DNA of 64,000 nt from assembly GCF_964213995.1 (NCBI RefSeq), contig NC_135804.1, positions 59,024,001 to 59,088,000 on the forward strand. The letters run 5' to 3'. Within the stretch, counting starts at the first letter, position 1. Each line of letters starts with the position of its first letter. The DNA is from Mustelus asterias. Lineage: Eukaryota. Shown in pieces: positions 12,029-46,119 of this stretch. The notes below the pieces were generated by a model. It was not told the DNA's origin, did not search any database, and was given only the letters and a program-made list of their open reading frames with translations. The position numbers and the translations under genes were made by a program.

Positions 12029-12127
12029 TCATAGAAACATAGAAAATAGGAGCAGGAGGAGGCTATTCGGTCATTTGAGCCTGCACCGCCATTCATTGCT
12101 GATCATCCAACTCAATAGCCTGATCCC

Positions 12128-12160
<33 letters not shown>

Positions 12161-17271: not shown

Positions 17272-17565
17272 TATGATTCTTGATTGGGACTGGAGAATGG
17301 TTCTTTCAAACTTAATCTGGAATTTAATTTTATCATGATCACATTTTTCCAGATAATCTTTTGCCAATTAAACCTGCCTTATTGCACAATACTAGATCTA
17401 AAATAACTTTTTCCTTAGTTGGTTCCACAATATATTGTTCTAGGAAAAAAGGGTTATTTGCATTGTTGTGATGTGCTTAATAGTGAAAGTAATGGAAATG
17501 TGAATAAATCTTATGGGCCTGCATTTCCCGCCTAGTATTCCATCTAATTATCATGGGATGTCCTT

Positions 17566-18030: not shown

Positions 18031-18142
18031 AAGAACGCTGACAAAGGCTGACCTGTGTGTGGAAGAGGAAAATATTTTATCAGCAGGCAACAGAAAGGAA
18101 GCGGATTAGGAAAATCAAATATATCTTTTTCCTCTGTTTCAG

Positions 18143-18201
18143 ACTGGAATGATGAATTTGGTGGCATTACTTCATACATCGCAAAGGAAGAAGATGAAGA
18201 G
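18143..18201 (+). CDS. OGFOD1: OGFOD1 coding exon (DWNDEFGGITSYIAKEEDEE)
   Basis: tgtttcag acceptor, GAG|gtatgc donor, phase 1-0. Matches W..E.GG.TSYIAK.EDEE. Confidence 0.94.
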
Positions 18202-19625
18202 GTATGCTCCTTGTTTACTGAAGTTCAATTTGAAGTTCGAAAAATAAATAATTTGCATTTATAGGGCGCCTTTCAACATCTCAGGACACCCTAACGCACT
18301 TTACAGTTAATGAAGTAATTCTTAAGGCTAATCACTCGTGTAATTTAGGAAACTCGGCAGCCAATCTGGGCACAGAAACTCCCAAAAATAGCAGTGATAA
18401 TGGCCAGAAATCTTATTTGGCAATTTTGATTGAGGGATAAATATTGACTGGGACACTAGGGAGAACTTCCTTGATATTTTTCAAAGTTGTGCAATGTGAT
18501 CTTTTACGTCCAGCTGAAAAGGCAGTTGGACTCAGTGGAAAGAGAACCCCCTATCATGATGCAGCAGTCCCTCAGTATTGCAATCGTGTGTCTGCCTGGG
18601 GTACCTCTGATGTCAGGTATGACTTTAAGTAGTGAACTTGATGAGGATATTTGAACTGTCAAATGATAAAGAAACCAGTCCAAGGTGAGTCAGGGCAGTA
18701 GGATTGAACAACGTAAATTTAAATCAGCAATCACTACATTTAAAGCAGGTTGGAAGAAAAAGTCTTGATCAAAAATTATTAATATTTAAATTAATTTGTC
18801 ATACAATGGTCATGAAGATTTTGGAACATTTAAAATGCAGTCAAATGCTAGCCTGGGTGATGTGGAGGCCCAAAAGCTTGAGATTTAAGGGCCATGTGTT
18901 CTTTTAGTGTCTTTCTCCTGTGTTAGTTTGTAATTGAAAGGAAATTAATAATCTCAAGCAACTTGGTAATCTAAGTGCAATATCACTTACTTTTAGTCAA
19001 AACATTATGAATTTCATGTTCAGAAATGTCTGGTAGTGACTTGTTCAATAACAGCAGGCATTCCAAAAGCAAACCCATGTATAGCTTTGGTGTGACGCAT
19101 ACTGGGAGACTAAAACTGAGAGTTTCTCCATTTGAGTTGGGGACTGTCAGGCAGCCAGTCAATGACTAGCACTAACAGTGACCGCTGGCAACAAACCCAT
19201 TCTTCCCAAGTGGAGAATTTGGACTAGCATGAAGACTCTGAAAGGAAAGGCTTTACAATATTGATGATGCAATAATCTTTTGGGGTCGCTGAGTAGTGCA
19301 CTTAAATGCACCAAATCCTTAATTGGTGTCTGCAGTAGTGTAGGAAGATACTAAAATTTTCCATATATTGAATTCCTAGATTTAGCAAACTCACTGAAAA
19401 TGGGGCCATGTCATCCTGAGGAGAAACTAAATGAAAGTCTCGTACTCCAATATGAGAAAAGGCTTAAAATGTGGATTGTAAATCACCCAAGACAGCTTTA
19501 CTAAGCTTTTGAGGCTTTTGAGATATCATGTGCCACCCATAATAACCAAAGATAAAGTGTAAATAGGGGTTTGGCAAAGGAAGAAGCGAAGTGAAAACAT
19601 TTTAATGGCTTGTGTTGTATTTCAG

Positions 19626-19787
19626 TTACTTACTCTTTGTCCAGAAGACAACTCCTTGGCCTTGATCTACCGAGATAAAGAAACACTGAAGTTTGTGAAA
19701 CACATTAACCAGCGAAGCATCAGTCTGTGTAAGAATACACAAGAGAGAAAGGGGTTCTGGGACTTTTCGTTTGTGTATAATGAGTGA
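19626..19787 (+). CDS. OGFOD1: OGFOD1 terminal coding exon ([31 protein letters not shown]...[11 protein letters not shown])
   Basis: tatttcag acceptor, phase 0, TGA stop. Matches the OGFOD1 C-terminus. All six exon phases join into one open frame. Candidate ATTAAA signals at ~20060 and ~20094. Confidence 0.95.
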
Positions 19788-20694
19788 TGGCACATCTGCT
19801 TTGTGTAACAAAGTCTTTGCATCTGATATGGGATGAAACATCAAAATGTTGAATGATGTGTTCTTACTGATAAAGAGGCTTATGTGGTATGTGCATCTCT
19901 TAAGATCTGATATACAATAGTGGCAGTTAGATCCCCATTGCATTTCGCCTGGGCTGCTTTTGGCTGTGCCAGATGTTTATACATTTGAAGAAAGACTTAT
20001 TTGGTTTGTGAGAGCTTGGTGTTAAATTTGCAATTGCCATAAAGTGTACTGTAATACTAATTAAAATATTTTTGGAACAGTTTTAGTTTTTGAATTAAAA
20101 ACATTTTTGTAATAATTGTGAATCAAACCTTTAATTTTGCTTGTCTCTTTGTTATTTGGTCCCTCTTCACAATCATCTGTCTTCAGCGTGCATGCTATAA
20201 GTTTCTCATAGTGGTACCCTCTAAATTTCAAGCATTTCACAGACTGAATTTGACAGTAGACTACTGCCTTTTACAACTTTTGTAGTGATACACTAATGTG
20301 TTTAATTTGTAATCTTATGATTTTTTGGGCGGTATTTTCTGTTGGTGTTCCCTCCAGTTTATATTATTTTCTCTCCATCTGAGAATTTCTGGTATGTGAG
20401 AGTCCTTGGCTGAGATGTTGGTAGGTGATCTATTGCTAGTCTGCCAATTTTGCTTGGAAGTGGGCTGCTGGGAGGTATGGAGATAGCTGAGGCTACAACT
20501 GCTTCTTTGATTTATTCTACATCAGATATTAGGCATTTATTATGGTGAAATTGATGGTCTCACTCAGGGAAGAGGAAAGATAATTGGTGTGGGAAATATA
20601 AGCAAAAGGAGTTAGTTCTGGAATACAGATTCAGATAAATTATCTGCATCAAACCATGCTGCAGAAAAAATAATTTGCCTGTCCCAGGATGCTT

Positions 20695-26620: not shown

Positions 26621-26659
26621 AACCTAGATCCTGTCTCTCTCAAAATATCTTCCAACAAC

Positions 26660-27049: not shown

Positions 27050-27104
27050 ATGTCTGGAAGAACCTCATTTCAACCCATCCTCATCCTGGCCCTTTGTCTC
27101 ACAG
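27050..27104 (+). CDS. IgSF V-C1-TM gene exon 1: signal peptide MSGRTSFQPILILALCLT
   Basis: ATG with A at -3, hydrophobic core, and phase-1 donor ACAG|gtacgt that joins in frame to the V exon. Confidence 0.8.
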
Positions 27105-27374
27105 GTACGTGTCTTCATTTTAACACCGACATCGGAAAGGCTGTAAATTAAGCTGACAAAAAACCATCAGAAAATATGTAAATTATATTGCAATTTAGAG
27201 CTGGGGTAATTTTCTATTGTTCCTTCTGGAGTTCCTCTGGCCGCCCTATATTCAGTAAAGACGATATTTGGAATTCAATGATAAAAGCTTATTGTCGGCC
27301 CGTTTTCTGCTAGAAATATTCCACTCGCCCTCTCCCTCTCAGAAGTAAATGTTTTTTTTGTTTTTTTGTAATAG

Positions 27375-27680
27375 AAGCCGGCAGCCAAGTACACCAAATG
27401 CTTGATGTGAAAAATGCGATCGCGGGAGATACCGTGACTTTTCACTGCACGTTCCCGCTGTTCAGGGATGTTAATAAGATCGCAGTGTACTGGTGGAGAG
27501 ATGGCGAACGAGAATTCTTAAAATCGCAGCAAGATTCCAGGAGAAGTTTCGAGGTTGAGACCAAAGCGAGCGCCACTCTGCGCATTGTCAAGGTGCGTTT
27601 TGAAGACGCCGGAGTTTATTATTGTCGAGTGCAGGGTGAATATAATGGAAATGGAACCGGCATACAGCTGGGTGTAAGCG
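27375..27680 (+). CDS. IgSF gene exon 2: V-set (VJ-type) domain
   Basis: Poly-T tract plus aatag acceptor, G|gtgagt donor, phase 1-1. Has B-strand Cys (TFHC), C-strand Trp (VYWW), EDAGVYYC and a J-like GNGTGIQLGV G strand. Confidence 0.92.
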
Positions 27681-27699
27681 GTGAGTGATCCTTCACGGC

Positions 27700-29720
27700 G
27701 ATTGTGGAAAACACAAGTTAAATTTACAATAATAGCAATCGGGGCCAGTGATGTAGGGCAGAGGAATGGCTTGAGAAAACGGCCGGATGGATACACCTAA
27801 TCGACATTAATTTCTCATTTGCCACCCTTCATTATGGCACATTCACAGTGTAAGAAGTCTAACAACACCAGGTTAAAGTCCAACAGGTTTATTTGGTTGC
27901 AAAGCTTCACAATGCACAGCCGACCATTGCGTCTGCGGTGGGAAGCTGACAGAATGAGAGACACGGCCACGGCAGGTCGGAGCTTTTGTTGATGGAAGTT
28001 CAGCACAGAAAGCCGAATGCTGACTATTGCGCGAATCGGACCCCACCTCGGCATTTGTTTATTGGGTTCTGGGGATTTCCGCAAGCTCCCGCTTTAACTG
28101 CTATTTCGAAATAACATTCATTTAAAATATACATTTCACAATCTCCTCTAATTGTTACAAGATGCGAAATGTAACAAGCGTTGACAATAAGCTATCACCT
28201 CCCATCCAGTGAAATCGCTCATTTATCCTCCAGTCTTGAATGGTTTATGTTTAGAACGAAATCCACCAGTTTTAAATGCGTTTAAACCCTTTCACTGTTT
28301 GTTACCCCCTTTTCTGAAATGAAAATCTCAGAATTGGCAACACAGAAACGTAAACCTCGGCCAAAAGTGTGGGTCGAAAACTTTTAAAAATAAAATAAGA
28401 ATATTAGAAATATTCAGACGGTCTGTGGTGAGAGAAACAGAATTAACGTTTAGAATGGAATATGGCTCTGCTTCGGAAGTTTACTGAGATCTCCAATGTT
28501 CTTGTCCAGGATAATTTGGAGGCATTGTCAGCGGAACTGAATAAAAACAGGTCTGAATAACATGAAAATTCTTGTCCACGTCAGGGAGAATCATTATTCA
28601 CTTTAAGTAATGTCGTATAGGATTTGTCTCGCAAGGTCGGCGTTAGACACCAGTGGATATCTTCTCTCATTGGGTATCTGGAGCGAAGTGCTTATTTTTC
28701 AAAACCACTTTGCTCCAGTTATCCAAGCAGTAGATTTTTCCAAAGTCGGATCCAGTCGGATCAGAAAGTTTCTAGAGGTAGAGCGAACCGGATTGTTGTA
28801 TTCGGCCGAGTTATTGATCGATTCTTGAGCATATTTTTTCTTTGTTGAATGTGTTTAAAAATGCTCTGATTAGGTTATAAAATCCGCTCGACCCAACATC
28901 GTCCATTTTACACATTAGTGCAAAATTAAATCACTATGTGTAGTCAGAGGTACATCACTGGAATAAGAGGGTTGACGTCATATCTATCGCAAGTTTTATT
29001 CCCTATTGATATCACCCGTTTAGTACCGTTGACAAATCGTTCCGAATTATTAAAACAAACTGCAACTCACCAGCTGTCCAAACCCCTGATCATTCTGTTT
29101 CAAACTCAAGGGCCACATATAAAGAATCGCAGTTAAACACCGAATTTCCACACGAGAAAAAATCCCTCCCGCATTTGAGCCCCCCTATCTAGCGTGTGTT
29201 CCTCTGGTCTAAGTGGAAACTCCCAGTAGATTAATCGAAAATCTACATAACAAACTTTTCTGTCCCTGAAAATTAATAATATTCGAATCGGAACGTTTAA
29301 TTGTTAAATGTTAAGATTTATTCAGCTTCGTGTCAAATATATGTTCTTCTCAAGTTGTTAATTGTCAATTCAATGGGTTCAACCCGACCATTTACTTCGC
29401 GTTTGGCGTCCGAAACCATGACGTGCTCGAAGCAACTAATATTTGGGGAAGAAAGTAAAAGGTTTGATTCTGGGACGAGTCTTTCTTTAATCGTTCTTTG
29501 AACCAGGACCCTACTTGGAATTTAATTTGTGGCACTGTAATTTATTACCTTGGCTAACAACAATAATTTCTCACTCTCAATAGAAATTGGGACGTTGGTT
29601 GTAGTTTAAAAATACTGTCATGGCCGAAAGTTCGACTGCCCTTCCACACGCCTGTCATTGTAAATGCAAAGAATGTACCGACTTTTATCCAGTCCTTTTC
29701 TTCAGCATTCCCGTTTTTGC
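27700..29720. promoter_or_regulatory. CpG-retaining intron-2 region with NF-kB and CRE motifs
   Basis: GGGGATTTCC at 28071-28080, GGAAACTCCC at 29215-29224, TGACGTCA at 28973-28980. CpGs are visibly more frequent than in flanking unique DNA. Confidence 0.4.
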
Positions 29721-29726
29721 TAAAAA

Positions 29727-29955
29727 CTAGGAACAGGAGGAGGCAATTGGTCCCTCGAACCTGCCCCCCTCTTTAACACGATCATAGCTGACCTCTTCCC
29801 CGCCTCAACTCCACCTTCTCGCCGGTTCAATATAGCCCTTCAAACCCTTACTAATTAAAAGTCCGTCCATCTCTTCCTTAAATTTACTCAATGCCCCCGC
29901 ATTCACCATGCTCTGGGGTAGTGAATTCCACAAATTCACCACCCTTTGAGAAACA
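29727..29955 (-). mobile_element. CR1 LINE 3'-end fragment
   Basis: SQRVVNLWNSLPQ..V.A peptide plus the 3'UTR hairpin region. Confidence 0.7.
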
Positions 29956-29997
29956 ATGTCTCCTGGCAAGAATTTATGGCAAGGTTTAAAATAGGTA

Positions 29998-30307
29998 AGG
30001 TGGCGCAATGGTTAGCAAAGCTGCCTCAGAGCACCAGGGATCCGGGTTCCATGCCAGCCTCAGGTCACTGTCTGTGGAGTTTGCATGTTCTCTCCATGTC
30101 TGCGTGGGTTTCCTCTGGGTGATTTGGTTTCCTCCCTCACTCCAAAGATGTGTGGGTTAGGTTGATTGGCCATGCTAAATTGTCCCTGAGTGTCTGGGGT
30201 ATGTGGGGTTAAGGGATAGGACCTGGGTGAGATTGTCAATGGTGCAGGCTTGATGGGCCAAATGGCCTCTTTCTGCACTGCAGGGAGTCTACAATTCAAT
30301 TCTATGA
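29998..30307 (+). mobile_element. tRNA-headed SINE
   Basis: Same head and core, CR1-like tail. Confidence 0.8.
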
Positions 30308-30970
30308 TAATTGATAGTCTTAGCTTCAACCCAACAATTTAGACTTCAGGACCAAGCTATTGTTTAATCAATGCTCCATTTTGCTGAAAATAAATTATTT
30401 ACAACATAGAGTTTCCATAGGGGAAAATAATAGGAGAATAGGTTGTTTGGACATCCAGTCCACTACGGCCAACTGCCACATTCCTCAGGTTTTCCTATGA
30501 CGCTCTGCACCTTTGTTCTGCCATTTACACATTCTGGTCTCTTAATGGATGCTCCTAACACCATTCTCAGGCTTACTGCTCATTTACAACATTGTAAGTT
30601 TCTCCCTTTGATCCTTTATTATCCCTAACTCCTGTTGTCCACCAGAGTTGGACCGCTTTTTCTATGGATTTTTGTGCCTTAAAGGAATTTATAGTTGTTG
30701 CAACCCATGTCTTAACCCTGAAATACAAGACATTGCTTGCCCACTGTCATAACTTTAAATGTAGTTTTCCAAGTTATCCAGAACTACACAGGCAGCTTAA
30801 GAACATAAGAAGAAATAGGAGCAGGAGTAGGCCATCTAGCCCCTCGAGCCTGCAATAAGATCATGGCTGATCTGAAGTGGATCAGTTCCACTTACCCGCC
30901 TGATCCCCATAACCCCTAATAAGAACATAAGAAATGTTCTTATTTCTTGTTCACAACAGAAGGTGTTGTG

Positions 30971-31318
30971 AGGCAGCATGGTGGCACAATGCTGCCTCAC
31001 AACACCAGGGACCTGGATTCAATCCCAGCCCTGCTTGATTGTCTTTGTGGACTTTGCATGTTCTCTCTGTGTCCACATGGGTTTCCTACAGGGTGTTCTG
31101 GTTTCCTCCAACATTCCCATATTACAATGTTGCGCAGGTTAGGTTGATTAGCCATGCTAAATTTCCCCTCAATGTCCCAGGATGTATAAATTAAGGGGAT
31201 TAATGGGGTAAATACGTGGGGTTAGGGAGATAGGGCTTGGGTAAAATACTCTGTTGGAGAGTCAGTACAGACTCGATGGGCCAAAGGGCCTCTTTCTGCA
31301 CTGTAGGTGTTCCATGAT
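30971..31318 (+). mobile_element. tRNA-headed SINE (diverged)
   Basis: Same head and core, CR1-like tail. Confidence 0.78.
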
Positions 31319-31430
31319 ACATAGTTTATGTTAAGATTAAAGACCCTAGATTCAGACTTAACTTTCAAATTCTCCTAAGGCCCCTTTGCTAAAAGCTTGT
31401 TAATTATCTCTTTCTTATTGCCCAATACTG

Positions 31431-31760
31431 TATAGAATCATAGAATCCTACAGTGCAGAAGGAGACCATTCAGCCCATTGAGTCTGCACTGACCACAATC
31501 CCACCCAGGCCCCATCACTATAACCCAATGCATTTACCCTAGCTAGTCCCCCTGACACTAAGGGGCAATTTAGCATGGCCAATCCACCTAACCCGCACAT
31601 CTTGGACTGTGGGAGGAAACCGGAACACCCAGAGGAAACCCACGTAGACACGGGGAGAATGTACAAACTACACACAGACAGTGACCAAGCCGGGAATCGA
31701 ACCTGGGTGCCTGGCACTGTGAGGCAGCAGTGCTAACCACCAGTGCCACTGTGCCGCCCA
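31431..31760 (-). mobile_element. tRNA-headed SINE
   Basis: Reverse-complement copy with a (ctatgatt)n tail. Confidence 0.85.
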
Positions 31761-33469
31761 TATCTAAAATAGCCTGCTCCCTGGTTGAATGCACACCATT
31801 CTGATTTATAAAACTATTTTCTACACATTCCATGATCTTTCTTTTCCACACCATTACTACAATTTAGCTTGCCTCGCCCATATAAAGATTAAAGCTCCCC
31901 CCCACTCCGATCACTGTATTATCTTTGTTACATGCACCTCTAATTTGATGGTTTATACACTGTGCCATACACCACAACTAAATGTAGGTGGCCTATAAAC
32001 AACTCACAACAATATTTTATGCCCCTTGTTGTATCTTAGCTCCTGTTCTTCCTTCAGATACTCTGCCCGTGGTGACCATGGACTTTCATTGGTTTGGTCT
32101 ATGATTCTGCTTGGCAAAGTTTTGCAATGGTTTCTTTCAGCAGTATGACTAACTGGGAAACTCTCCCAGTCTTACTGTCTACTTTCAGGCATATCAGAAG
32201 AATTTACAGGCTGATAATCAACCTGTTTGATGAGCATTTCATGTTTTTAGCTCAGAAAAATCAAGAGGTAGAATCAGTTTGGGCGGAGCTAAGATCCACT
32301 TTCTCCACTGACTTCACTTTGTCCTTTATTATCAGGGTCACCCTTCCTCTTTTTCCAGTTTGCCTATCTCTTCTAAAAATGAAGCATCGTGACTATTTAG
32401 TTGCCAACATTGGTCACGTTACAACCACATATTTGTAATAGCTGCTCAATCTAACCTATGAATTTGTTTTTTCTGTCCTTTGTCTTAAATCTTTCTGATT
32501 CAATCAAAAATCTTTATTCCTTGGTTCTAGACTAATTTATTATTTCATATTTTTGTTTTAGTTGTTATTTAATGGGCATGGCTCAGTAGCAGCACTCTTG
32601 GTTTTGAATCCAGATGGTCCAGAATCCAGACTGTCCACTTGGGTGAAAATATAATATTTCAGGGAAGAAGAGCAGGCATGTTGTCCCAGTGTCCTGGTCA
32701 ACTATACACCTCAACCAAAGTCATTTAAAAAATGATCTTATTGTTTATGGGAACTTTCTGTGGTCAGCCAGGTTGCTGTAAAGTATGTTGGCTGCAAAGT
32801 GCTTTGGAGCATTGTGAAAGAGGTTAAGTAAATGGAAGTTCAACTTTGACGGTGATGTGCATTTCATCTGACAAAGGGATACAGTCAGATGCAAATGTGT
32901 TAGTGCATTAGCTCCTGACAATATGTAACATTGCAGCATTTTTTTGTGATTCTTTTAAAAAAAATTCTGCAGAATGTAAAACTTACCATTTAGGCACCTG
33001 GTGTTAGCTTTGCCTACCTCCATCTGAGGGGGATGCACCTCCCAGATCAAATGCAGGATAGCCAAATGCAGTCTCACTTAGGCAGTGGAAGTTAAAATTC
33101 TGTCTTTTGACCTGATACAAGGTTATTTATCACCAGTTTGTGAAAGCGTTTATATCAAAATGAACTTAAATGTTTGTGTTTTAATTATGTTTGCATGTCC
33201 CTGGACAAAAAGTGATATGAAGCAGAAAGATAAAATAAATATGAAAAGGGAATAGCTCAGAAAAACAACCCGAGTTCCATTTTAAAAACTCAAATATTTG
33301 CTAAAGCACATTGGCGGGAATGAAAATTACTTTGGTCTTTGTGTTGCAAATAAACAGAGTCATAAAGATTCCCTGTCATTGGTAAATTCTCGGGAAATTG
33401 GAAGTGATATATTTAGAATTTTACGAGAAACTTTTACCAAGAAACATATTTCCCCTCAAAGGGATTTTA

Positions 33470-33885
33470 GTTTTAAAGGTAGAGTTTCCCTAACAGAGGT
33501 TGTCCATTTAAGACAAAGATGAGAAGGCATTTCTCTATTAAGAGAGTTGTCAATTGTTAGAATTTCCACACGAGAGAGCCATGGAAGCTGAGTCATTTGC
33601 TGACATTTTACCACCCTGCCTGCCACAGGAATCGGAGCGGGCAAAGGGCGGAACATGGAAAGTTGACCTCAGGTGGGATTTTACGGTTTCGGGACAAGCG
33701 AGGCCTTAAAATCCCACCCATTGAATATATTCAAGGCTGAGGCAGACAAATTCATGAACTACAGGGAAGTCAAGGATTATAGGGAACAGGCTCGAGAGTG
33801 GAATTGAAATCCAGTTAACATAGTTCTATTAATGGCAGAGCAAGCAGGAGAGACCAACCTGTCTCCTGCTCCTATTTCTTATGGC
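33470..33885 (+). mobile_element. CR1 3' fragment interrupted by a ~130-bp MITE (~33597-33719)
   Basis: Decayed CR1 3' end. The inner segment ends AAAATCCCACCC, like the Harbinger-type termini. Confidence 0.5.
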
Positions 33886-35061
33886 CACTGATTCCATATT
33901 ATTGGATAGTGTGTAAATGACTTAATTGAAATGGCTCCAAATTAATGCAATTACAATGTTGCTATACAGAGCAGCAAGCTATTTCTTCCTCCATAGCCTT
34001 GTAACAGCTAAATCTATCTTTGAAGAAGCAAGCATCATCAATTTTTAAGGAAGGGTGGATGCACACATGAAGAAGAAAATGGAGGGATGTAAGGCAGGTT
34101 GGAAGTATGGTACATATGCGTCAGCATAGACTCGCTTGGGTGAATAACCTGTTTCTGTGTTGTAGCTTCTAATACTGGGTCTTCTATTGGGATGTTACTT
34201 GCGGCAACATGCACCACGTTTTGAAATTGGGTTACTATTCTTGTTGAAACAATATTTCGGAAATATCTCAGCTAATTTAAGTTTAGAACAACAGAATGGA
34301 ATCATAGAGTCATTATGACACAAAAGGATACCATTCAATCCTTCATGTCTGTGCCAGCTCTCTACAAAAGCAACTTCCACTCCCCTGCCCTTTCCCTGTA
34401 GCTCTGTATTCATTTTTTACAAGTTAAATGTCACTTTGTACACAAGTAGTTTACTTCATTTAGCATTATGATTCAACTATCCCCCTTACTAGTTGAACAG
34501 CAATCCTGCTTAAATATCCAATTTAATGGACAATGATTTTCATGAAACATTATAATTAAGCCCAATTATATCCTGGATGCATGTTTTCAGTGGAAATTTC
34601 CACAGACGTTTGTTGAGTCGCAATTTGAAGCATGACTTGATTTAATTTTCACTACCTATTTCTGCTGAGCCAAACTGCAATCATGTAAAATGACACTGGT
34701 TAATCCAGGCTCATAATCATCTCCACATCATAATCCAGGGCAGGTCAGAGGTTGGACCAACAAACAGCATATTCACCCAGTGATTATTTGGATAATCTAC
34801 ATTTTTGTATGCAGCGTTATTGCACGACAATGTATTATGAACACATCAAGTTTCTCCTTTTTTTGCTTGCAGCAGATTATACTTGGCTGCCAGTGTCTCA
34901 AAATGGATACAAAGTAATTAACAACTAGGAAGCAGTTTCTTTAAACTAATTAATATTCATAGGTAAAGTAGATCCTTAATATTGTTAAATGATGCCCAAA
35001 GCAATGTATTAGGAAATCGTACCCACTTGGAAATTGAGAAATGTGTTTGTTTCTTTTATAG

Positions 35062-35358
35062 TTCCTCCAGATCCTCTGAAGATTTCGCCAAAGCTTTTTG
35101 CGAATGGCTCTCTAACATGTTTGTGTGAAACGTCTGAGTTCTATCCTGATAGTTACACCATTGTTTGGCGTAAAGATGGTAAAGAAGTTACGGCTGGAGT
35201 TGAGAAATCCATGAAGAAGAATGCTAAGGGACTGTATGAAGTTACCAGTTATTTGAAAGAGCCACAGGCAGGTCCAACTGGGACTGTTTATATCTGTGAG
35301 GTATCTCACTCGACCCTTAAAGCTCCAACTTCAGTCAACTACACTGTTCAATTCGCAG
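35062..35358 (+). CDS. IgSF gene exon 3: C1-set domain
   Basis: ttttatag acceptor, G|gtagga donor, phase 1-1. C1 signature LCETSEFYP..YTIVWRKDG...LYEVTSYL...YICEVSHSTL. Confidence 0.92.
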
Positions 35359-35733
35359 GTAGGAAAAAACCTATTTAGTTGTGAATTGTTGTATATTGTG
35401 GTTTCACTGCAATTGATGGGAAATATTTTCACTCTAATAATGCCAGAAAGGAAATAAGTGCAGTGCTGGGGATTTTTCAGAAATTGTGAACTCAGCAGAG
35501 CTGGTTAATGATGGTGAAGTGAACTAGCTGCAGCTACAGACCTCGCTGATTTCATTTTACCCAACTTTTGAAGCTTTCCTTTCCAGGGTGCATTGAGTCG
35601 TGCTGACTTAAACCTTACTTAATTGCATGTCCTTCATGTATAATCAGGACACACACACACAGACACACATAATTGATTTTAGATTTAATTAGTTAAATGA
35701 ATTTATTTTCTCCAGCCTCTGTGGTGGTGTTAC

Positions 35734-37514
35734 ATTCTACAAGTATGTTAAGAGCAAGAAGATAAGATGTGAAGGAGTAGGACCTATCAAATGTGACGGT
35801 GGGAAAGTCTGTGTAGAAATAGCAGAGGTACTCAATGAATAATTTACTTCAGTGTTCACAGTGGAAAAAGGATCTTGGTAGTTTCAGTGCAGACTTGCAG
35901 TGGACTGAGAAGATTGAGCATGTGGACATTAGGAAAGAGGATGTGTTGGAGCTTTTGAAAAGCATCAAGTTAGATAAATCGCCGGGACTGGATGGGATGT
36001 ACCCCAGGTTACTGTGAGAGGTGAGGGAAGAGATTGCTGAGCCTCTGATGATGATCTCTGTGTCATCAATGGAGACGGGAGAGGTTCTGGAGGATTGCGG
36101 ATGTGGTTCCGTTATTCAAGAAAGGGAGAAGAGATAGCCTGGGAAATTATAGATCGGTGAGTCTAACCTCAGTGGTTGGTAAGTTGATGGAGAAGATCCT
36201 GAGAGGCAGGATTTATGAACATCTGGAGAGGAATAGTATGATCAGAAATAGCCAGCACAGCTTTGTCCAAGGCAGATCATGCCTTACGAGCCTAATTGAA
36301 TTTTTTGAAGATGTAACTAGACACATAGGCGAGGGAAGAGCGGTAGATGTAGTTTATATGGATTTCAGCAAGGCGTTTGATAAGGTGCCCCATGCAAGGC
36401 TCATTGAGAAAGTGAAGGGGCATGGGATACAAGGGGACATTGCTTCGTGGATTCTGAACTGGCTTGCCCACAGAAGGCAAAGAGTGGTTGTAGATGGGTC
36501 TTTTTCAGCATGGAGGTCGGTCACCAGTGGAGTGCCCCAGGGATCTGTTCTGGGACCCTTGCTCTTTGTGATTTTTATAAATGACCTGGATGAGGAAGTG
36601 GAAGGATGGGTTGGCAAGTTTGCTGATGACACAAAGGTTGGGGGTGTTGTGGATAGTGTAGAGGGATGTCAGCAGTTGCAATGAGACATAGATAAGATGC
36701 AAGACTGGGCAGAGAAGTGGCAGATGGACTTCAACCCAGATAAGTGTGTGGTGGTTCATTTTGGCAGGTTGAATAGGATGAAAGAATATAATATTAAGGG
36801 TAAGACGCTTGGCAGTGTGGAAGATCAGAAGGATCTTGGGGTCTGGGTTCATAGGACGCTCAAAACAGCATCGCAGGTAGAGGCTGTGGTTAAGAAGGCA
36901 TATGAAATACTGGCCTTCATCAATAGAGGAATTGAGTTTAGAAATCGGGAGATAGTGCTGCAGCTGTATAGGACCCTGGTCAGACCCCACCTGGAGTACC
37001 ATGCCCAGTTCTGGTCGCCTCATTACAGAAAGGATGTGGAAGCCATAGAAAGGATGTAGAGGAGATTTACAAGGATGTTGCCTGGATTAGGTGGCATGCC
37101 TTATGAGGATAGGTTGAGAGAGCTAGGTCTTTTCTCCTTGGAGAGGTGAAGGATGAGAGGTGACCTGATAGAGGTGTATAAGATGTTGAGGGGTATTGAT
37201 AGAGTGAATTCTCAGAGGCTTTTACCCAGGGCTGAAATGGTTGCCACAAGAGGTCACAGGTTTAGGGTGCTGGGGAGTAGATACAGAGGAGATGTTAGGG
37301 GTAAGTTTTTCACTCAGAGGGTGGTGGGTGCGTGGAATCGGCTGCCAGTAGTGGTGGTGGAGGCGGATTCGATAGGGTCTTTTAAGAGACTTTTGGATAA
37401 GTTCATGGAAGTTAGTAAGATAGAGGGTTATAGGTAAGCCTAGTAGGTAGGGACATGTTCGGCGGAACTTGTGGCCGAAGGGCCTGTTTGTGCTGTAGCT
37501 TTTCTATGTTCTAT
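35734..37514 (+). mobile_element. CR1-clade LINE, 5'-truncated, RT domain with stops
   Basis: VPLFKKG...[30 protein letters not shown] and KFADDTK, with a ttctatg tail. Confidence 0.95.
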
Positions 37515-39140
37515 ATTACATCTCTGGGTCGTTAGGCCATCATTGGGTTACTTCTCCAATTATGAAGGCTTAAATCATCTAGTGAGAGTAACTCAGAAAC
37601 ACAGTTGTCTCACTATGCCATCAGTTGTTTCCAAGTCACTTGTTAGAGAGGTTAATGGATGATGGTCCTTTATGAGTTTTAGTGTGAATGCAGAACTCTG
37701 CCTTCCACACATCACAGTTACATGAGCGAGTTAGCAGTGATACTTTGCTGACAGTGGCTTCAGGACAAAGGGAACTTAGAGAAGATAACCTAAGATTTAG
37801 AAAATAGAATGAATTCTCATTGGCAGTAGCCTTCTGTTTCTCCTACCTTTCCTGTTCCTCAGTCCAACGCCGGCATCTCCACATCCTGTTCTGAAGGCAC
37901 AGACACCTGCCATATCAGTATGTCATTCACATCTAAGTTCAGACACTGTCACCTATTATTTAACCCACAGGAGCCAAACAACTTAATCTGTCTTCTCAGG
38001 TAGTTGGAAAAGATTCCATGATACTTTTGAAAAAAGAGCAAGGTAGATTTTCCAGTGTCCTCACTGTCATTTATCTCAACTAACATTACCAAAACTGATG
38101 AATCAGTTATTTATTCCATCATTGTTTGTGGGACCTCTCTGTACACAAATTGACTACATGTTTCCAACATTATACAGTGACCACGCATCAAAATGTACTT
38201 AACTGACTGTAAAGCACTTTGGGATTGACTGAGCTTATGATGGGTGCTTACATAAATGCAACCTCATTCATTAAGCAGGATAGGCAGAAAAAGTGGATGC
38301 TGATAATCTTAATTATCCATGTACTTTCTAGATAAAGAGCTAAGGATTCAACATTTGAGTCGTTCAAGCAACAAATGCATTTTAAAGAATTTACTCTGTT
38401 CAGCACTTCTAGTGAAACTGTAGTTGTGTTCTTTACCATCATATTTACAAAGTGTTCCCAAATGTTTATGAAGTTGTTGCTAAATTATAGTAGATGCATT
38501 TTCCCCTGTGTATCAGACTTTTATTGCTGCTTTATCTTGGTCATATTTAATTTCTGATTTATGTTTGGGGGAGTTTTATTTTGATCTGAACCAAAGCAAG
38601 TGCTGTGCAGAAGAACATTTTCTTTGTTTGATTTTCAAGTCCAATTAAGAACACAAAAACACATAAAATAGGGGCAAGAGTAGACATTACAAGCTGTTGA
38701 GCCTGTGTTCCTATTCAAAATGATCAAGACTGATCTTGGACTTCAACTTTACCCACTTAAGATATAGAGTAAGTGCTCTTAAATCCATCTTTAGAAAAGC
38801 CCCACCATCAACTGTAATGATCCCATTTTTTCACTCCTTTTGGATAGTTTAAATGAAAAAATCCTATTATTGCTAATCTGAACTGAATCATGGACAGTTT
38901 TGGCCCACATCAAGCAGGAATGAGACAGAAATTCACACACTCATTAATCGTAAGGCTCATGAGTTGTAATTTTATGGGTTTGACAATCATGATTCAGACT
39001 GTTTATGACTCAGGAGCAGAAAGTGGAATATTATGTATTTATATTTGTGCAGGAAGCTTAAATTCATATTATTATCTGTCCTGTACTGTCATTCTTCTGA
39101 AAAATGAAAGATTAGTTTTTGTTCTGTATGTATCTTGCAG

Positions 39141-39260
39141 GCATTGATTCCAGCTGGCTTTTTCCTTGGTGGGTCTACCTCTGTGGAGCCATAGCTTTAC
39201 TGCTTCTGATTATTGCAGTGGTGCTTTGTTGTAAATTATGTTGTTGCAAAAAACGTAAAG
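39141..39260 (+). CDS. IgSF gene exon 4: transmembrane (GIDSSWLFPWWVYLCGAIALLLLIIAVVLCCKLCCCKKRK)
   Basis: tcttgcag acceptor, AAAG|gtaagg donor, phase 1-1. Hydrophobic stretch followed by a Cys cluster and a basic stop-transfer sequence. Not in the ORF track. Confidence 0.85.
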
Positions 39261-39754
39261 GTAAGGGAACAATCTTATTCCATTAATGGTTGGACTTCTA
39301 GATTTAATATTCATCAATTGTAAAAATACAGAAATGATAATAAATTGAAAGGACATGTGAATTAACCTTATTAAGCTGCAATAACAAAACGTTAGGATGA
39401 AAAATACTAATTCACTTCTTATATAGTATTTTATGCAATTTATTTGTGAGCTCAGCAAGGTGAAATATGGTAATTTTTAGTTTGGAACACTTCCCTTCTA
39501 TGCACTAAGAACTTCCAGATTAGGTACAGCACATTTAAAGTCAGAGCAAAGTTCCTCCTACGCTCCACAGAAATATGGTACAATTCAGGGCATTGGATTT
39601 TCAATCTCCCTTGAGGAACAAGATTGGGTGTGGATGCACTTTGAAAATTGTACTCCTAGCTGGCATCTTTAAGATCCTCCCAAGTTTGTTCCAGTATTCA
39701 AAGTGAGAGTGAGGGCGGGAGAAACCGGCAGTCTGCAGGGCAGCAATTAAGATA

Positions 39755-40795
39755 ACAGGGAATAGGAGAAGGAGTAAACCTTACACCCCTTTGAGTCTGC
39801 ACCATCATTTAATATGATCGTGCCTGATCTTGGGCTTCAACTTTACTTTGTTGCCTGCTCCATATATCCCTTGATCCACTTAGAGACCAAAAATCTGCCT
39901 ATCCCAGCATTAAAGGTATTCAATGGTGGAGCAGCCTCAATCCTCTGGATTACAGAATTCCAAAGATTCATAACCCTTTGTGTGAATTAATTTCTCCTCC
40001 CTCTTATCCCGAGATTGTGTCCCAGTGTTTTACATTCCCCAACCAGTAGAAACAATCTCGAAGCATCTACCCTAACAAGCCCCTTCAGCTTTTGTATATT
40101 TCAATGTGTCATCTCTTACTCTTCCATACTTCAGAGAAGATAGGCCTAAATCACCCAACCCCTTAGTATAATCCTTCATTTTCAGGGACCAATTTAGTGA
40201 ACATTCGCTGTAGCGTCTTCAATTCTTCCTAAAATGGAGATCAAAACTGCTGACTACCCTTGATAAGCCTTGCCTCTCCAAGTGGCGATTAATTCTGTCC
40301 TTTGGTTTTTTTTCAATTATTTCCCTGCCACTGATTTTAGAGACACTGCCCTGTGATTACCTGTTTTTTTCCCCCTATTTCGTTTCTTGAATAATGCTAC
40401 CCCACGGGCTGTCCTCCTGTACTATGGCATCTCTCCTGCGGCCAGAGAGGATCTGAAAATTCGCCATGGAGCCTGTGCAATCGCCTCCCTTGCCTCACAA
40501 GTAGCCTAGCATACATCTCATCTGGGCCTGGGGATTTATCCATTTTAAGTCCGCTACCACCTCCTCCCTCTCATTGCTAATCTGTTCAATTATATCACAG
40601 TCCCCTTCCCTGCTTTCTAAACGTACAATGTCCTTCTCCATACTGAACACCGATGCAAAATACTAATTTAGTACCTCACCTACATCTTTTGGGTCCATAC
40701 ACATATTACCACTTTGGGCCCTACATTTTCCCTGGTTACCCTCTTGCTCTTAATATACTTATAAAACACTTTGGAATTTTTGTTTAATTTGTCCT
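39755..40795 (-). mobile_element. CR1 LINE fragments
   Basis: 3'-end fragment followed by an upstream-RT fragment (NSKVFYKYIKSKRVTRENVGP). Confidence 0.7.
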
Positions 40796-40799
40796 TTAT

Positions 40800-41735
40800 T
40801 TTGTTAGAGTTGCACCTATCCAGGTAAGGGGAGACTATTCTATCAGACTCCTGACTTGTGCCATGTAGATTATGGACAGACTTTGTGGAGTCAAGAGGTG
40901 AATTATTCACTGCAGGATCTGTTGATTGTGCAATTACTTAGCTCTATCTATCACTTGCTGTTTATGCTGTTTGGCACGGATGTAGTCCTGTATTGTAGCA
41001 CGGATGTAGTCCTGTGTTGTAGCTTCACCACATTGGAAGGTTATTTTAAGGTATGCCTGGTGTTGCTCCTGGCATGTCCCCCTGCACTCTTCATTGAACC
41101 AAGGTTGATCCCCTGGCTTGGTGGTAATGGTAGAATTGGGGATATGCCGGGCAATGAAGTCACTGATTGTGTTTGAGTACAATTCTGCTGCTGCTGATGG
41201 CCCATGGTTGCCTGGTCTTGAGATGCTAGATCCGTTCAAAATTTATCCCATTTAGCATGGTGGTAGAGCCACACAATACAAGGAGGTTATCCTTAATGTG
41301 AAGATTCAACTATGTCTCCAAAAGAACAATACAGCTGGTCATCCCTACTGCTCCTTTAAGTCCGCTACCACCTCCTCCCTCTCATTGCTAATCTGTGGCA
41401 GGTAGGTTGGTGAGGATGAGGTTAAGTACATTTTTCCTTCTTAGTTCACTCTCCACCTGCTACAGACTCAGTCTAATAGCTGTGTCCTTTAGGACTCAAC
41501 CAGCCTGATAAGTAGCAGTGCTACCAAGTCATTCTTGGTGTTTGATATTAAAGTCCCCCACGAAGAGTACCGTCTGAACCCTTTCCACCTTCTGTGCTTC
41601 CTCCAAGTTGTATTTAACATGGAGAAGTATGGATTTATCAGCTGAAGGGATGCGGTATGTGATAATCGGCAGTAGGTTTCCTTGTCCAGGTTTTTCCTGA
41701 TGCTATGAGTCTTCATAGACTTCAAGATGTGCTTG
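40800..41735 (-). mobile_element. Non-LTR fragments of the 20695-22065 family
   Basis: HIPNSTITTKPGDQPWFNEECR and endonuclease-region remnants, homologous to 52290-54650. Confidence 0.7.
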
Positions 41736-43619
41736 CTAACTTCCTGCATTCCTTTGACGAGCACAGCCAAGTCTCTCAAAAAAATACTTACACGTTTTTT
41801 ACCTTTCAGAAGGTATCCTGCTTTTCTGTTCTTACGACCAAACTTCTCCACATATACTCCATCTGCCATCTTTTGCCCACTTACTCTATATCTTTGCAGC
41901 CTCCATTGATTACCTTTCCACCCTGCTTCAAATGATTAGCAAATTTAGATACATTACTCTGTGTCTTCATCTAAGAGATTTTAAAGGCATCTAGAGGTAT
42001 GGGGAGAGTGCTGGGTGTATGGTGTTGTGATAGAGGATCAGCCATGATCATGTTGAATGGTGGAGCGGGCTGAATGGCCTACTCCTGCTCCTGCTTTCTA
42101 TGTTTGCTATGACCAATCTTAAAGTCCTATCTCTAAATGCAGTCTTCTCTTTTTTCTAGTCTGCAACACCTCTCCACCTTGTGTCATCTCTCTTTATCTT
42201 AAAAATATCACAATGGTCATTTATCTATTGAATTTTCCACTCTTATTTTAACAAGGTTCCAAATAAGTCATCATACACATTGTACCACCTCCTATAATCC
42301 CACTTTATTGAAACAAAGACTCATGACAGCCACTAATTGCAAAACCCCCTATATCTGTCAGTCCCCACTTCCTCTAAAAATCTGTAGGTAACTGGAAGCC
42401 AAGCTTGTCATTTGCTGATTACTACTTCCTGAATTACACATTTTTCCCTTCTGCTCTCTTCAAACTCAGCCCTGGTCTGTAATTTAGTTTCCTCAATTTG
42501 TAAAGAAGTCTGTCTAGTCTCAGAATATAGTTATGAATTATATTTTATATTTTTCCATATTTGAAACAAAAATTGCTTTGTGAGCATTTGTCTAAAGTGA
42601 GCAAAAATGGAAAACAGATCCCAAGGTTGTCCATCACTGCAGCTGTAAATTCATTTCTGTCAGCATCTGGTCACATCACAAATATCAGATGTTCCACATG
42701 TCTTTGGCCAATAGCCTCAAAAGTCTCAATTTTATTCAGAAGAGCTGATTCCGTGTTTAAGTATGATTTTTGCATTTTTTTCTTTTGATTCTGTTACAAC
42801 TTCCAGGACTTCATTTTGGAGTTATGGTTGTTGCTAATGAAGCAATTATGGTATGTTCTCAGTGAATAGGATTAATGTTCTGTTACATTTTGGCAATGTA
42901 TTGTTAAAGTCTTAAACTAAGTGCTACTGGATTAAGTTGAAGGGGGAGGGAGAAATTTCTGTATGTTTTCTCCCATGTGTAGCTGTAGCATGCATTGCAT
43001 TACCATGGAAATGCTGGTTAAAAAGGCGTTTGCAAAGTTTTGCCAGGGTTGCCACTACTCTTCTGCTGAAGTTACAGTGGGTGAGTGAGAGAACATTTTG
43101 TTACTTTCATGCTTTTCAAACTGGGAGGTCATTCTCCTTGGTCTTCTTGATGAGATTAGCTGGCAAGTTCTCAATGAACTAGCACAGGAAGACCACATGT
43201 AGATAGTCATCATGATGTCCCTGGTGTTGATTTTCCTCATGGGGATCAAGTGACTGCACTGGGCATAGATGATCCAGCTACCTGCTTTGAAAGTGGACCA
43301 GGAGGTTGACCCAAAGTGCAATTGTGTCCATGCATCACAGCATATGGAACACGAGTCATCAACCTTCCCACTGAGGTATGTTCACCATCTGACATCTCAG
43401 GAGGCCATCAAATAGATAATCAAATTAGACATCACATGTCAAACCTATCCTATCACACAAAAGTAGCAGTTCTAGTGGTGAACCTCAGGGGAGTTAACTC
43501 CATTATCCTTGATTCAAATTTATGGAAATTTTATTGCTTTAAAATACATTAGAAGCAAAAAGTACAAACTTTTAAATAATAGGTTATTTTAAATACACAA
43601 AACATTACTTTTCTAAAAT

Positions 43620-44315
43620 TTTTCCATGGGATGTAACCATCACTGGCAAGATCAGTATTTCTTGTTCATCTGCTGTTGAGAAGTGGTTGTGGGTTGCCTT
43701 CTTGTACCACTGCAGTCCATCTGTTGTAGGTACACCCACATTGCTGTTAAGAAAAGAATTCCAGGATTTTGACCCAGTGACAGCAATGTAGTTACACGTC
43801 AGGATGGTGTGTAGCTTGGAGGAGAACTCCCTGTTGGTGATATTCATGCCCTTGTCCTTAGAAATTGTAGAAGTTGCAAGTTTGGAAGGTGCTTGCTGTC
43901 GAGCTTCTGCAGTGCATCTTCTAAATGGTACACACTGCTGTCAGTGTGTGTCAGTACAGGAGGGGGTTACTGTTTAAGGTGTTGGATGGCAACCGATCAA
44001 GTGGAATTATTTGTCCTGGATGATAAGCTTCACACTCCTGTCTTGAGCCTTGTAAATGCTGAACAGGCTTTGAGGAGATAGGAGGTGAGTTACTTGTCAC
44101 AGATTTCCTCACCTCTGGTCTGCTACTTGCAGTGACAGTATTTATAGTGCTGGTCCAGTTCAGTTTCTCATCAATCGTAACCCCCAGGATGGTGGGGCAT
44201 CCAGAAATGTTAATGCTGAAATGTTGAATGTCAAAGGGACATGGTTATATTCTTTCTTGTAATGGTCATTGTCTGGCATCAATGTTACTTGCCACTTATT
44301 TGCCCAAGTCTGAAT
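43620..44315 (-). mobile_element. Non-LTR 3' fragment of the 20695-22065 family (old)
   Basis: Clear nucleotide similarity to 20700-21480. Confidence 0.7.
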
Positions 44316-44880
44316 GTAAAATAAAAATGCCCCTCCCTTTTATAGCCTAAGTATTGATATCTGGTTTGTAGACTAAGGTACTCATTGGCCAGATTTTCTG
44401 ATTTACAATATACTGTATCAGACTATTGTGGTTTTATGGCATTTCTCCTGCAACATTATTTCAATTTCATATTCTGCATCAAATAGGCTTCATTGTAATG
44501 GGTGATTCCCTAATGTATAGCTTTATAACAATCCAGTTTTCACATGTTGTACCATGATTATGTAGAAAGAGACTTGAGCCTCAAGCAACATCACTAAAAG
44601 AGATAAACTGATCATTATCTCATTGCTGCTCAGGGGGCAATGCTGTTGGCAAATTGACTGTTTCTTATGATACAATTCACAATATATTTGTGTGGAATGC
44701 TTTGGGATGTTATGAAAAGTATTACATAAACATGATGACTTCTTCTGAAACAATGGATTAACTCAATAATTTAACAAGTGGAAACTTCCTGGTCAATGTT
44801 GTTCAGATAATAAAGTTGCTGACTCATCAGCGGTGTCCAGCATTTTCTGTCTCTTAGTTTCCATGTTGTTTTTCTCACAG

Positions 44881-45059
44881 CTCGTGAAGGCAACATTCAA
44901 ATGAGGCGTTGTGTTCGCTGCTCTGAGCCAGTAACGAAAAATCCTAAATGCGATGAACAAGGAGTAAACAAAGACAATACTCAGACACCACAGAGGAACA
45001 TGAGCAAAGTCGAAAAAGCTAATGAAACCCCACCGAAGCGCAAGAAACACCATAAATGA
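44881..45059 (+). CDS. IgSF gene exon 5: cytoplasmic tail (AREGNIQMRRCVRCSEP...ETPPKRKKHHK*)
   Basis: Strong pyrimidine tract with ctcacag acceptor, phase 1, open for 59 codons to TGA. AATAAA downstream at 45477. The five-exon CDS totals 957 nt (318 aa). Confidence 0.7.
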
Positions 45060-46119
45060 GATCGGTACCCCACATGTGCCTGATGGTGGGAAAACAAATC
45101 TGAAGAGTATTTTGTAACAATCATAGGTTGTCTATAAAGAATACCATCATTACATACTTCATAAGTGAGTCAACCAGAGAATTCCAACAAGACTTAGCAT
45201 CATAAAATTATTGCATTTAACTGTATTTGTTAACTCACTAAATCATTATTTCTGTGAATTAATATTTCTGAATCAATAATATGCTTATCTGAGTGCTTTT
45301 GACAGTTCTGGCAGGGTCATTGGAAGGATGTTCATATTTCACTGAGGATTGTTGTGAGTGAATTAATTTCTGAAGGATTCTCATAGTAGGAAAATGTGAT
45401 ATGCACAAATTTAACTCAATTCCAGTCCTCCAGCCACTCTGTGGAATTTTTGCATCTGTTCACTTATAGTTTATAAAATAAATTGCCCCATTCATATACC
45501 TACGGAATTTGAGTTCACCATTGACAGCCAGTTTATATATATATAAAACATTTTATTCTCCATTTGTACCCTTTCATGGAATTCAAGGCCATATTTGCAC
45601 CTCATTGGGGTAATTTGGATTTTGTGTGCTAGTATAAAATGGCTGATAGGGAGTCGGCACCTTATTTTACATCTCCTCCAATTTATGTTTACCCCTCCCC
45701 CCTCCACCCCCTCCCCACTATACAGAATTTTGGTGTCCACTTCCATCTAATATATTAAATTGTATTGACTCCTTACTTAAGTGCTGTTTCAGGTACTGTA
45801 CATTTCATAACATTTCAGGGCTCTCGTCACATACACTATGTAACATTTTTATTTACTTTTTACAGTTAGTGGACTGAATTTGCATTCCCATTCATACTAT
45901 GCATACAGAATAATAATACTCATTCAAATCCAGTGTCCATAGTTCTGTATCATTTATTGCTAGTTTGCAGGACACCCATTTATATCTAATTTCCATTATA
46001 ATTATCAATACTTCACCATATTATACATTTAATTACATTCTAAATTTACAATATACAAGTGCTTATATTGTTATGCAAATCAAGTTATGAAAGTATACTA
46101 ACTTAAAAGTATTGGCAGT

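Follow-up and report, generated by a model that had tools for sequence, protein, structure and literature searches.

A germline VJ-C1 membrane gene of Mustelus asterias belongs to a clustered cartilaginous-fish family of likely innate paired receptors

Researchers look to VJ-C1 genes that do not rearrange as proxies for the gene once invaded by RAG, and those described from sharks amount to one or two genes (UrIg and UrIg2). PRARP and the tetrapod VJC1 genes were reportedly described by Fu and by Ohta in 2019. Mammalian SIRPs possess two C1 domains, SIRP-beta carrying a Lys in the middle of its transmembrane (TM) segment, and NKp30 (NCR3) carries a TM Arg and no C1 domain. The novel immune-type receptors (NITRs) of bony fish are clustered and combine a J-like V domain with a second domain of the I type. 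In PMC12227049, UrIg and UrIg2 are presented as elasmobranch, non-rearranging genes with a single-exon VJ followed by multiple C1 domains, of which nurse shark UrIg2 has nine, located in the MHC or the AgR complex, and NCR3 as MHC-linked. PRARP and tetrapod VJC1 are MHC- or MHC-paralogon-linked, according to PMC10751288.

The gene analysed here is located in a 64,000-nucleotide stretch of Mustelus asterias contig NC_135804.1 (the window). It consists of five exons, with all introns being of the GT-AG type and in phase 1, and encodes 318 amino acids followed by a stop codon. Its layout is that of a single antibody chain, but in a germline-fixed form. The window contains the following features:

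27050..27104, + strand: exon 1, ATG and signal peptide with a phase-1 donor, spliced to exon 2 in read contigs
27375..27680, + strand: exon 2, germline VJ-type V domain with a Cys-Cys spacing of 59, the G strand N111-G-T-G-x-x-L-x-V and no RSS
35062..35358, + strand: exon 3, C1-set domain (Pfam profile)
39141..39260, + strand: exon 4 (120 nt, phase 1-1), encoding an uncharged TM helix that starts with PWWxYxC and a Cys-rich juxtamembrane stretch
44881..45059, + strand: exon 5, basic cytoplasmic tail with a conserved C-x-R-C, no Tyr and no ITIM, single copy genome-wide
45060..45083, + strand: stretch after the stop codon, seven sense codons long and closed by another stop, matching orthologue C-termini
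700..19790 (approximate span), + strand: neighbouring gene OGFOD1, of which the exon near 8460-8700 was tested (PDB 4nhx, E 5.5e-16), and the outer exons are where we take them to be from short motifs only

The five phase-compatible exons of the preliminary description, which had proposed a 318-residue protein, were all recovered with AG/GT flanks, and the V and C1 exons matched the Pfam V-set (40.7 bits, cut-off 26) and C1-set (43.9 bits, cut-off 21) profiles, respectively. The protein is already known as an NCBI prediction, which is identical over its 318 amino acids and named only 'SIRPA-like'. Junction 27104/27375, for which a splice check had been proposed, was found joined at GT..AG in contigs assembled from two sequencing runs of two studies, the library type of both runs being unrecorded or guessed. 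These spliced leader-V contigs run past 27680 into other sequence, and a contig from a third sequencing run reads through the leader-V intron. Junctions 27680/35062, 35358/39141 and 39260/44881 are based on their splice signals, on the identity with the NCBI model and on the colinearity of orthologues. The stop codon of the gene in this genome is considered to be early, because the codons that follow it match orthologue C-termini. Since exon 4 spans 120 nt in phase 1-1, its skipping preserves the reading frame, and TM-less isoforms of the orthogroup that skip this exon are annotated in five species.

Relatives of the window gene occur as predicted proteins in sharks, rays and chimaera, and all 18 family representatives that were looked up are chondrichthyan; these relatives and the gene structure agree with the earlier proposal of a non-rearranging V-C1-TM membrane gene of cartilaginous fish. 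In the M. asterias genome, 56 V-bearing loci are located on one chromosome, 48 of them (window gene included) with intact V and C1, and the cluster contig carries 55 of the 56 genomic V matches and the top 54 of 115 genomic C1 matches. Among 57 other loci examined, V was present in 55 and an uninterrupted V and C1 in 47; the cluster contains several pseudogenes and, in addition, four identical locus pairs. It surrounds BBS2-NUDT21-OGFOD1, whereas MHC II alpha and Ig/TCR V are located on other contigs, the MHC II contig also carrying the NCR3-like V exons of this shark. The nearest genomic V outside the cluster is NCR3-like rather than Ig/TCR, and this nearest-family relation is reciprocal. The portrayal of the locus as an antigen-receptor-like gene was correct as regards the VJ-C1-TM plan but missed the context, the gene being one of about 56 clustered paralogues whose relatives display paired-receptor hallmarks. 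As a separate observation, OGFOD1 serves as a synteny marker inside the cluster; in other species, family members apparently share one contig per species, which is the sole basis for synteny there.

Among 59 non-orthologous TM-bearing family proteins, 27 were found to carry an ITIM-type motif only, 14 a basic TM residue only, seven both and 11 neither, these being counts in which isoforms were not collapsed and both ITIM and TM-Arg were assigned by matching patterns to predicted models. ITIM-type and TM-basic types both occur among proteins from one species, and the activating-type residue is an Arg close to the outer TM end, accompanied by a short tail. As the relatives display ITIM-type tails or a TM Arg with a short tail, the family likely represents innate paired receptors with inhibitory and activating members, as judged from predicted sequences. 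Pathogen-driven paired receptors often show positive selection; among recent paralogues, no overall positive selection was detected (pooled pN/pS of 0.50 for V and 0.40 for C1), which speaks against the paired-receptor reading. In the accessible part of the marker tables from bamboo-shark single cells (supplement 3 of PMC11372145), no row was tied to the family. Automatic annotation names its members inconsistently, as SIRPA-like, Ig lambda-like, NCR3LG1-like, CD276 or tapasin-like.

The window gene is the odd member of this family: single-copy and conserved to chimaera, it has clustered juxtamembrane Cys residues and a CxRC tail. Orthologues were identified in 12 further species, including chimaera, with a V-only model in a 13th; their V domains are 44-73% identical to that of the window gene, while the tail is conserved only at 31-72%. 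The C-x-R-C motif is present in 11 of 12 orthologue tails and an ITIM in none of the 12, and the orthogroup is without TM charge. Inspection of the window gene for a signalling module revealed no ITIM, no tail Tyr and no charged TM residue.

In its V domain, Asn111 of an N-G-T sequon occupies the position of the J-segment Phe/Trp and G112-T-G114 forms the di-glycine bulge, the canonical J motif F/W-G-x-G being replaced by N-G-T-G. The G strand reported for this exon is therefore J-like but not a canonical J, and its suggested resemblance to NKp30 was borne out, as an N-G-[TS]-G-T-x-L-x-V strand is common to NCR3-like V domains. The Cys-Cys spacing is 59 in the window gene and 54-59 in family V domains, compared with 65-73 in Ig/TCR rows. 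The stated absence of a complete RSS around the V exon was upheld: none was found in 27300-35100 at ≤1 heptamer and ≤2 nonamer mismatches, the same scan being positive at six of six Ig/TCR control loci, and none was found among paralogues (0/55). Loose thresholds returned two matches near the V exon versus 0.33 expected (6.5% of shuffles reach two), one of which sits in a high-copy intronic repeat, and a loose match at the V 3' end was observed in only two of 55 paralogues. A candidate cryptic RSS within the CDR3-like loop was dismissed as chance on the basis of the loose-threshold shuffles.

Phylogenetic analysis placed the family V domains in one clade (support 98/97) in a 66-row tree, from which five redundant or truncated V rows were left out, and the family C1 domains likewise in one clade (97/98). 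A 96/96 branch of the 66-row tree parts the family from SIRP-like and Ig/TCR rows, the same branch being weaker (88/66) in the 33-row subset used for AU tests. An antigen-receptor reading of the gene or its family is regarded as highly improbable. It would account for the L-VJ-C1-TM exon plan with phase-1 introns, for the Ig constant domains that are the best PDB sequence matches of C1, and for the resemblance of the two-domain model to Fab light chains and UrIg2 in Foldseek, and a clade of family and antigen-receptor V was not rejected (AU p 0.461, with UrIg V outside the tree). However, the Fab matches mirror the make-up of the PDB (identity 20-26%), and the PDB sequence searches are swamped by multi-domain proteins and antibodies and do not discriminate; the TM lacks an antigen-receptor charge, the closest V outside the cluster is of another type, and the cluster lies off the MHC II contig, whereas UrIg and UrIg2 are linked to the MHC and AgR complex (PMC12227049). 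Because the V domain is shorter than Ig/TCR V and places a glycosylation Asn at the J Phe/Trp position, the V and C1 family is, on sequence grounds, not an Ig/TCR-type chain. Of the suggested architecture of a pre-RAG antigen-receptor ancestor, the VJ-C1 plan stands; as the V domain is shortened, has no J aromatic and is separate from Ig/TCR V in free (unconstrained) trees, a special link to that ancestor is not supported, although the AU test does not reject it.

According to another reading, the cluster is a cartilaginous-fish SIRP branch with one C1 instead of two, and the window gene a SIRP-gamma-like, non-signalling, CD47-binding adhesion member. The combination of VJ, C1, ITIM/ITSM tails and activating partners follows the SIRP plan, many members are labelled SIRPA-like by NCBI, the genome yields no better SIRP candidate (best E 1.4e-7), and AU tests did not reject a clade of family and SIRP (p 0.447 for V and 0.319 for C1), for which the SIRP rows were lungfish and skink SIRP-like sequences only. 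Nevertheless, a lungfish SIRP-like V query placed 0 of 101 matches on the cluster contig, the branch described above splits SIRP-like rows from the family, the neighbours BBS2/NUDT21/OGFOD1 are not those of the mammalian SIRP region, and the Arg near the outer TM end differs from the mid-TM Lys of SIRP-beta, making this reading quite unlikely.

It is also unlikely that the window gene encodes a B7-like ligand, with the role of B7-H6, for MHC-linked NCR3-like receptors or its own ITIM paralogues, rather than a receptor or co-receptor. Such a ligand would be consistent with a conserved, single-copy V+C1 ectodomain without signalling motif, with the annotated soluble isoforms, and with the PD-L1 V domains that top the Foldseek list of the V model (TM 0.82). 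NKp30 and VNAR obtained near-equal scores at 22-26% identity, however, so that fold scores do not discriminate, and the V domain is nested in the paired-receptor clade, outside the B7-H6/tapasin-like V rows, which form their own clade (100/99) and were labelled by likeness, named NCR3LG1 not being among them. A simple NCR3LG1 orthologue, considered in the preliminary description as the outcome that would contradict it, is not indicated, since both V and C1 trees keep the family apart from the B7-H6/tapasin-like and SIRP-like rows tested. An atlas search with a window-gene orthologue returned only generic V+Ig clusters.

With moderate confidence, we favour a germline leader-VJ-C1-TM-tail protein that belongs, as its conserved and single-copy member, to a clustered family of cartilaginous fish, likely of innate paired receptors, and that is itself predicted to act as a lipid-anchored accessory receptor or self-marker, not as an antigen-receptor chain. 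Most family members would bind ligands through the V domain; by comparison with known paired receptors, ITIM-tailed members would signal through SHP phosphatases and TM-Arg members through an ITAM adaptor such as FcR-gamma or CD3-zeta. The V domain of the window gene may function without Fab-like pairing, given that a glycan site occupies the J Phe/Trp position. By analogy, its juxtamembrane cysteines may be palmitoylated, providing a lipid anchor, and the C-x-R-C tail may dock a cytoplasmic partner, possibly via zinc, as in the zinc-mediated docking of Lck by CD4/CD8. Skipping of the TM exon could yield a soluble decoy. Within the family, a self-ligand or lipid-anchored accessory receptor is the most likely role by analogy.

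A broader proposal, considered rather doubtful, is that germline VJ-C1 paired receptors form a lineage of jawed vertebrates that has gone unrecognised. In this view, the lineage would have expanded in sharks to over 50 genes outside the MHC, its V domain would survive in C1-less ITIM/Arg receptors of coelacanth and turtles, and the window gene would be its ancient invariant co-receptor, coupling via a zinc-clasp-like C-x-R-C tail. If true, this would supply the large repertoire of NK/myeloid receptors long sought in cartilaginous fish, together with a living model of pre-RAG VJ-C1 receptor function. No published description of the cluster was found in the full-text literature, including supplements of PMC11372145 and PMC3964593, of which the coverage was partial, and an earlier listing of the family is possible. 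Under the favoured paired-receptor reading, one exon plan serves a whole family from chimaera to sharks and rays, which gives cartilaginous fish a concrete candidate set of innate receptors, both inhibitory and activating; VJ-C1 architecture alone is no mark of an antigen-receptor ancestor. The conserved window-gene orthologue offers the easiest handle for ligand discovery.

Compared with known systems, the family resembles SIRPs in its clustered germline VJ-type V and C1-set domains, with ITIM/ITSM and adaptor-coupled members and one with neither, but differs in its single C1, its neighbours and its outer TM Arg, in clades separate from lungfish and skink SIRP-like rows, and in a cluster missed by the SIRP-like V query. 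NCR3/NKp30 shares the single-exon VJ, the G-strand motif and the TM Arg of activating members, and its V is reciprocally the closest V family in the M. asterias genome; in contrast, family V forms its own clade with a Cys-Cys spacing of 54-59 versus 61-68 in NCR3-like V, and the window gene has a C1 domain, an uncharged TM and a contig other than that of NCR3-like V and MHC II. B7-H6 (NCR3LG1) and tapasin-related proteins share V, C1 and TM and are the origin of several automatic names, whereas the family V has a di-glycine J-like strand and lies apart in both trees. NITRs are likewise clustered paired receptors with a J-like V, NITR10 being a weak PDB sequence match of the V domain (E 4.6e-5), but their second domain is I-type, not C1. 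PRARP and VJC1, compared by description only, are similarly non-rearranging VJ(-C1) membrane genes. Finally, UrIg and UrIg2 share the non-rearranging single-exon VJ and C1, but represent two genes with several C1 domains, whereas the present family comprises about 56 loci with one C1 and ITIM/Arg modules, and is also found in chimaera.

Sequence inspection confirmed the five exons of the preliminary description (27050..27104, 27375..27680, 35062..35358, 39141..39260 and 44881..45059, forward strand), bordered by AG/GT and with all introns in phase 1, and translation yielded the expected 318 residues without an internal stop. The assignment of V and C1 domains likewise held, with exons 2 and 3 exceeding the Pfam cut-offs for V-set and C1-set, respectively. 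The NCBI model in Mustelus asterias represents an identical protein under an automatic SIRPA-like name, and the AlphaFold model consists of two Ig sandwiches, a TM helix (residues 229-254) and a disordered tail. The predicted leader-V junction (27104/27375) was exactly spliced in read contigs of two runs from two studies, which extend beyond the V exon donor; junction support covers one of the four introns, and the leader-V intron was unspliced in a third run. The stop codon in the M. asterias genome lies eight codons early relative to orthologues, and may be species-specific or allelic. At window 45057-45083, this stop precedes seven sense codons and a further stop that match orthologue C-termini, several of which have a penultimate Cys. 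A very high-copy short repeat was observed at window 27850-27903.

As claimed previously, no RSS was detected around the V exon, at thresholds recovering RSS in six of six Ig/TCR control loci; a loose-threshold scan returned two matches, consistent with chance. The picture of a lone antigen-receptor-like gene was not sustained, as a V-exon search of the genome produced 56 matches, 55 of which are on a single contig (C4): they occupy blocks spanning 58.8-60.0 Mb and 67.7-70.0 Mb, apart from a single match at 54.7 Mb. Of 115 C1 matches, the best 54 fall in the same blocks. Besides the window gene, 57 loci were extracted for inspection (counts are lower bounds): a V exon was present at 55, V and C1 on the same strand, both uninterrupted, at 47, and a di-glycine strand resembling that of J, as judged by a loose pattern, at 48, while an RSS scan detected none at any V-bearing paralogue among them. 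TM exons were found downstream at many of the cluster loci. Four pairs of loci have identical V DNA and may represent recent duplicates or assembly doubles. In one subfamily (L040-L042 and L054), the V has lost the di-glycine strand. The window gene is real, and the following features accompany it and the cluster:

C4, 58.66 Mb: BBS2, interleaved with the receptor block
C4, 58.75 Mb: NUDT21, interleaved with the receptor block
Window about 700-19790, forward strand: OGFOD1, enclosed by the receptor cluster, 7 kb upstream of the window gene
Window 6420-7214 (reverse), 25604-26736 (reverse), 36055-37434 (forward), 15102-16365 (reverse) and 59794-62023 (reverse): look-alike fragments of CR1-type LINE reverse transcriptase, Harbinger-like transposase and LTR-element pol, recognised by eye

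BBS2, NUDT21 and OGFOD1 adjoin one another on human 16q13. The last NUDT21 exon occurs three times (G000:C4:58769427, 58824101 and 58880734), in a tandem duplication together with V-C1 genes. MHC class II alpha is located on contig C8, not C4; C8 also carries two clusters (7.1-7.6 and 20.4-21.2 Mb; L068, L071-L092) that together comprise at least 20 single-exon VJ genes of NCR3-like type. Among V domains elsewhere in this genome, the NCR3-like ones are closest to those of the C4 cluster. Two further loci (L069 and L070, G000:C9:109.26-109.35 Mb) contain tandem multi-C1 exons, like B7-H6/tapasin-like multi-domain proteins.

At the sequence level, the V domain differs from Ig/TCR V in its Cys-Cys spacing (54-59 in family V vs 65-73; 61-68 in NCR3-like V) and in an N-G-T sequon, invariant in 9/9 orthologues, at the J Phe/Trp position. 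The aromatic residue at this position packs the V-V interface in Fab and TCR; a glycan there would therefore disfavour Fab-like pairing of the window-gene V. No C'/C'' strands were called in the predicted V model, for which Foldseek ranked PD-L1, shark VNAR and NKp30 about equally. The short spacing and the sequon also speak against the window gene being a close pre-RAG relic, which is very unlikely, even though a grouping of the family with antigen receptors was not rejected (p=0.461) given weak deep branches. Germline VJ exons with a W-G-K-G motif at L095 and L104 (G000:C15:2.3-2.4 Mb) fall together with P0164, a bamboo shark protein with six V domains, and are nearer to Ig V than the cluster family is.

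The family formed one clade for V (98/97 in a 66-row tree, 96/88 in a 33-row tree) and for C1 (97/98), in trees without UrIg, PRARP, NITR, or mammalian SIRP, NCR3 or B7-H6 sequences, the outgroup rows being labelled by likeness apart from those that carried database names. That the cluster represents shark SIRPs was considered improbable: a family plus SIRP grouping was not rejected, on weak deep branches (p=0.447 for V, 0.319 for C1), but a SIRP-like lungfish V retrieved no cluster members among 101 matches. Adjacent to family V (92/85, 33-row tree) lie a single-V ITIM protein from coelacanth and multi-V proteins from turtles. Coelacanth and turtle VJ receptors occur in ITIM and Arg-TM forms (P0058, P0197, P0173, P0221-P0227) and are possible bony-vertebrate counterparts lacking C1. 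Outside the family, the TM that best matched the shark activating-TM profile came from a turtle, at a weak 13.8 bits.

Dozens of V-C1-TM relatives emerged from a third homologue search and from a profile run against 1.84 billion representatives. Non-orthologous relatives with a TM numbered 59, isoforms being counted separately: ITIM/ITSM-type motifs alone occur in 27, a basic residue alone at the outer TM end (mostly Arg, with a short tail) in 14, both in seven and neither in 11; 17 more are predicted models without a TM. By its motifs, the family thus has paired-receptor anatomy. All 18 representatives chosen for taxonomic look-up belong to sharks, rays, skates or chimaera, and matches beyond chondrichthyans arose via multi-domain proteins whose individual domains scored much lower. 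Pooled pN/pS among recent paralogues was 0.50 (V) and 0.40 (C1), and diversifying selection is therefore not demonstrated. The germline V domains would recognise self or pathogen ligands, with ITIM inhibition balanced against adaptor-coupled activation.

The window gene is, from its sequence, an atypical member. Clear orthologues were identified in 12 other species, Callorhinchus included, and a V-only model in addition in Pristis. The sampled orthologues form one clade (99/94, 66-row V tree), and the nearest other V in the M. asterias genome is 44% identical. Its tail exon is unique in the genome, and its TM type is shared only by an isolated paralogue at 54.7 Mb (L038). This second conserved paralogue (G000:C4:54.656-54.664 Mb) has the same PWWIY Cys-rich TM; in the relatives P0075 and P0196, the tail carries Tyr motifs. 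A motif scan of the window-gene orthologues detected neither an ITIM nor a charged residue in the TM; the orthogroup retains a TM Cys and a juxtamembrane Cys/Lys cluster, with a C-x-R-C motif in 11/12 tails. The annotation of five species includes isoforms lacking the TM exon, and the M. asterias TM exon is likewise 120 nt, phase 1-1. Conserved since the chimaera split yet lacking ITIM and TM charge, the gene somewhat more probably than otherwise encodes an accessory receptor or self-marker that is palmitoylated and also has a soluble form acting as a decoy; a pure B7-like ligand is unlikely.

Non-rearranging VJ-C1 genes are already known as a class (PMC10751288; PMC12227049). A full-text literature search of incomplete coverage returned no account of this cluster, and an earlier description is possible. 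Tree placement of the V against antigen receptors aside, the window gene was found to lack the testable features of NCR3, of B7-H6 (with B7-H6-like rows labelled by likeness) and of Ig/TCR/UrIg. By analogy, the family may work like SIRP or NITR, which are paired receptors as proposed here for the cluster, with a V type resembling that of NKp30.
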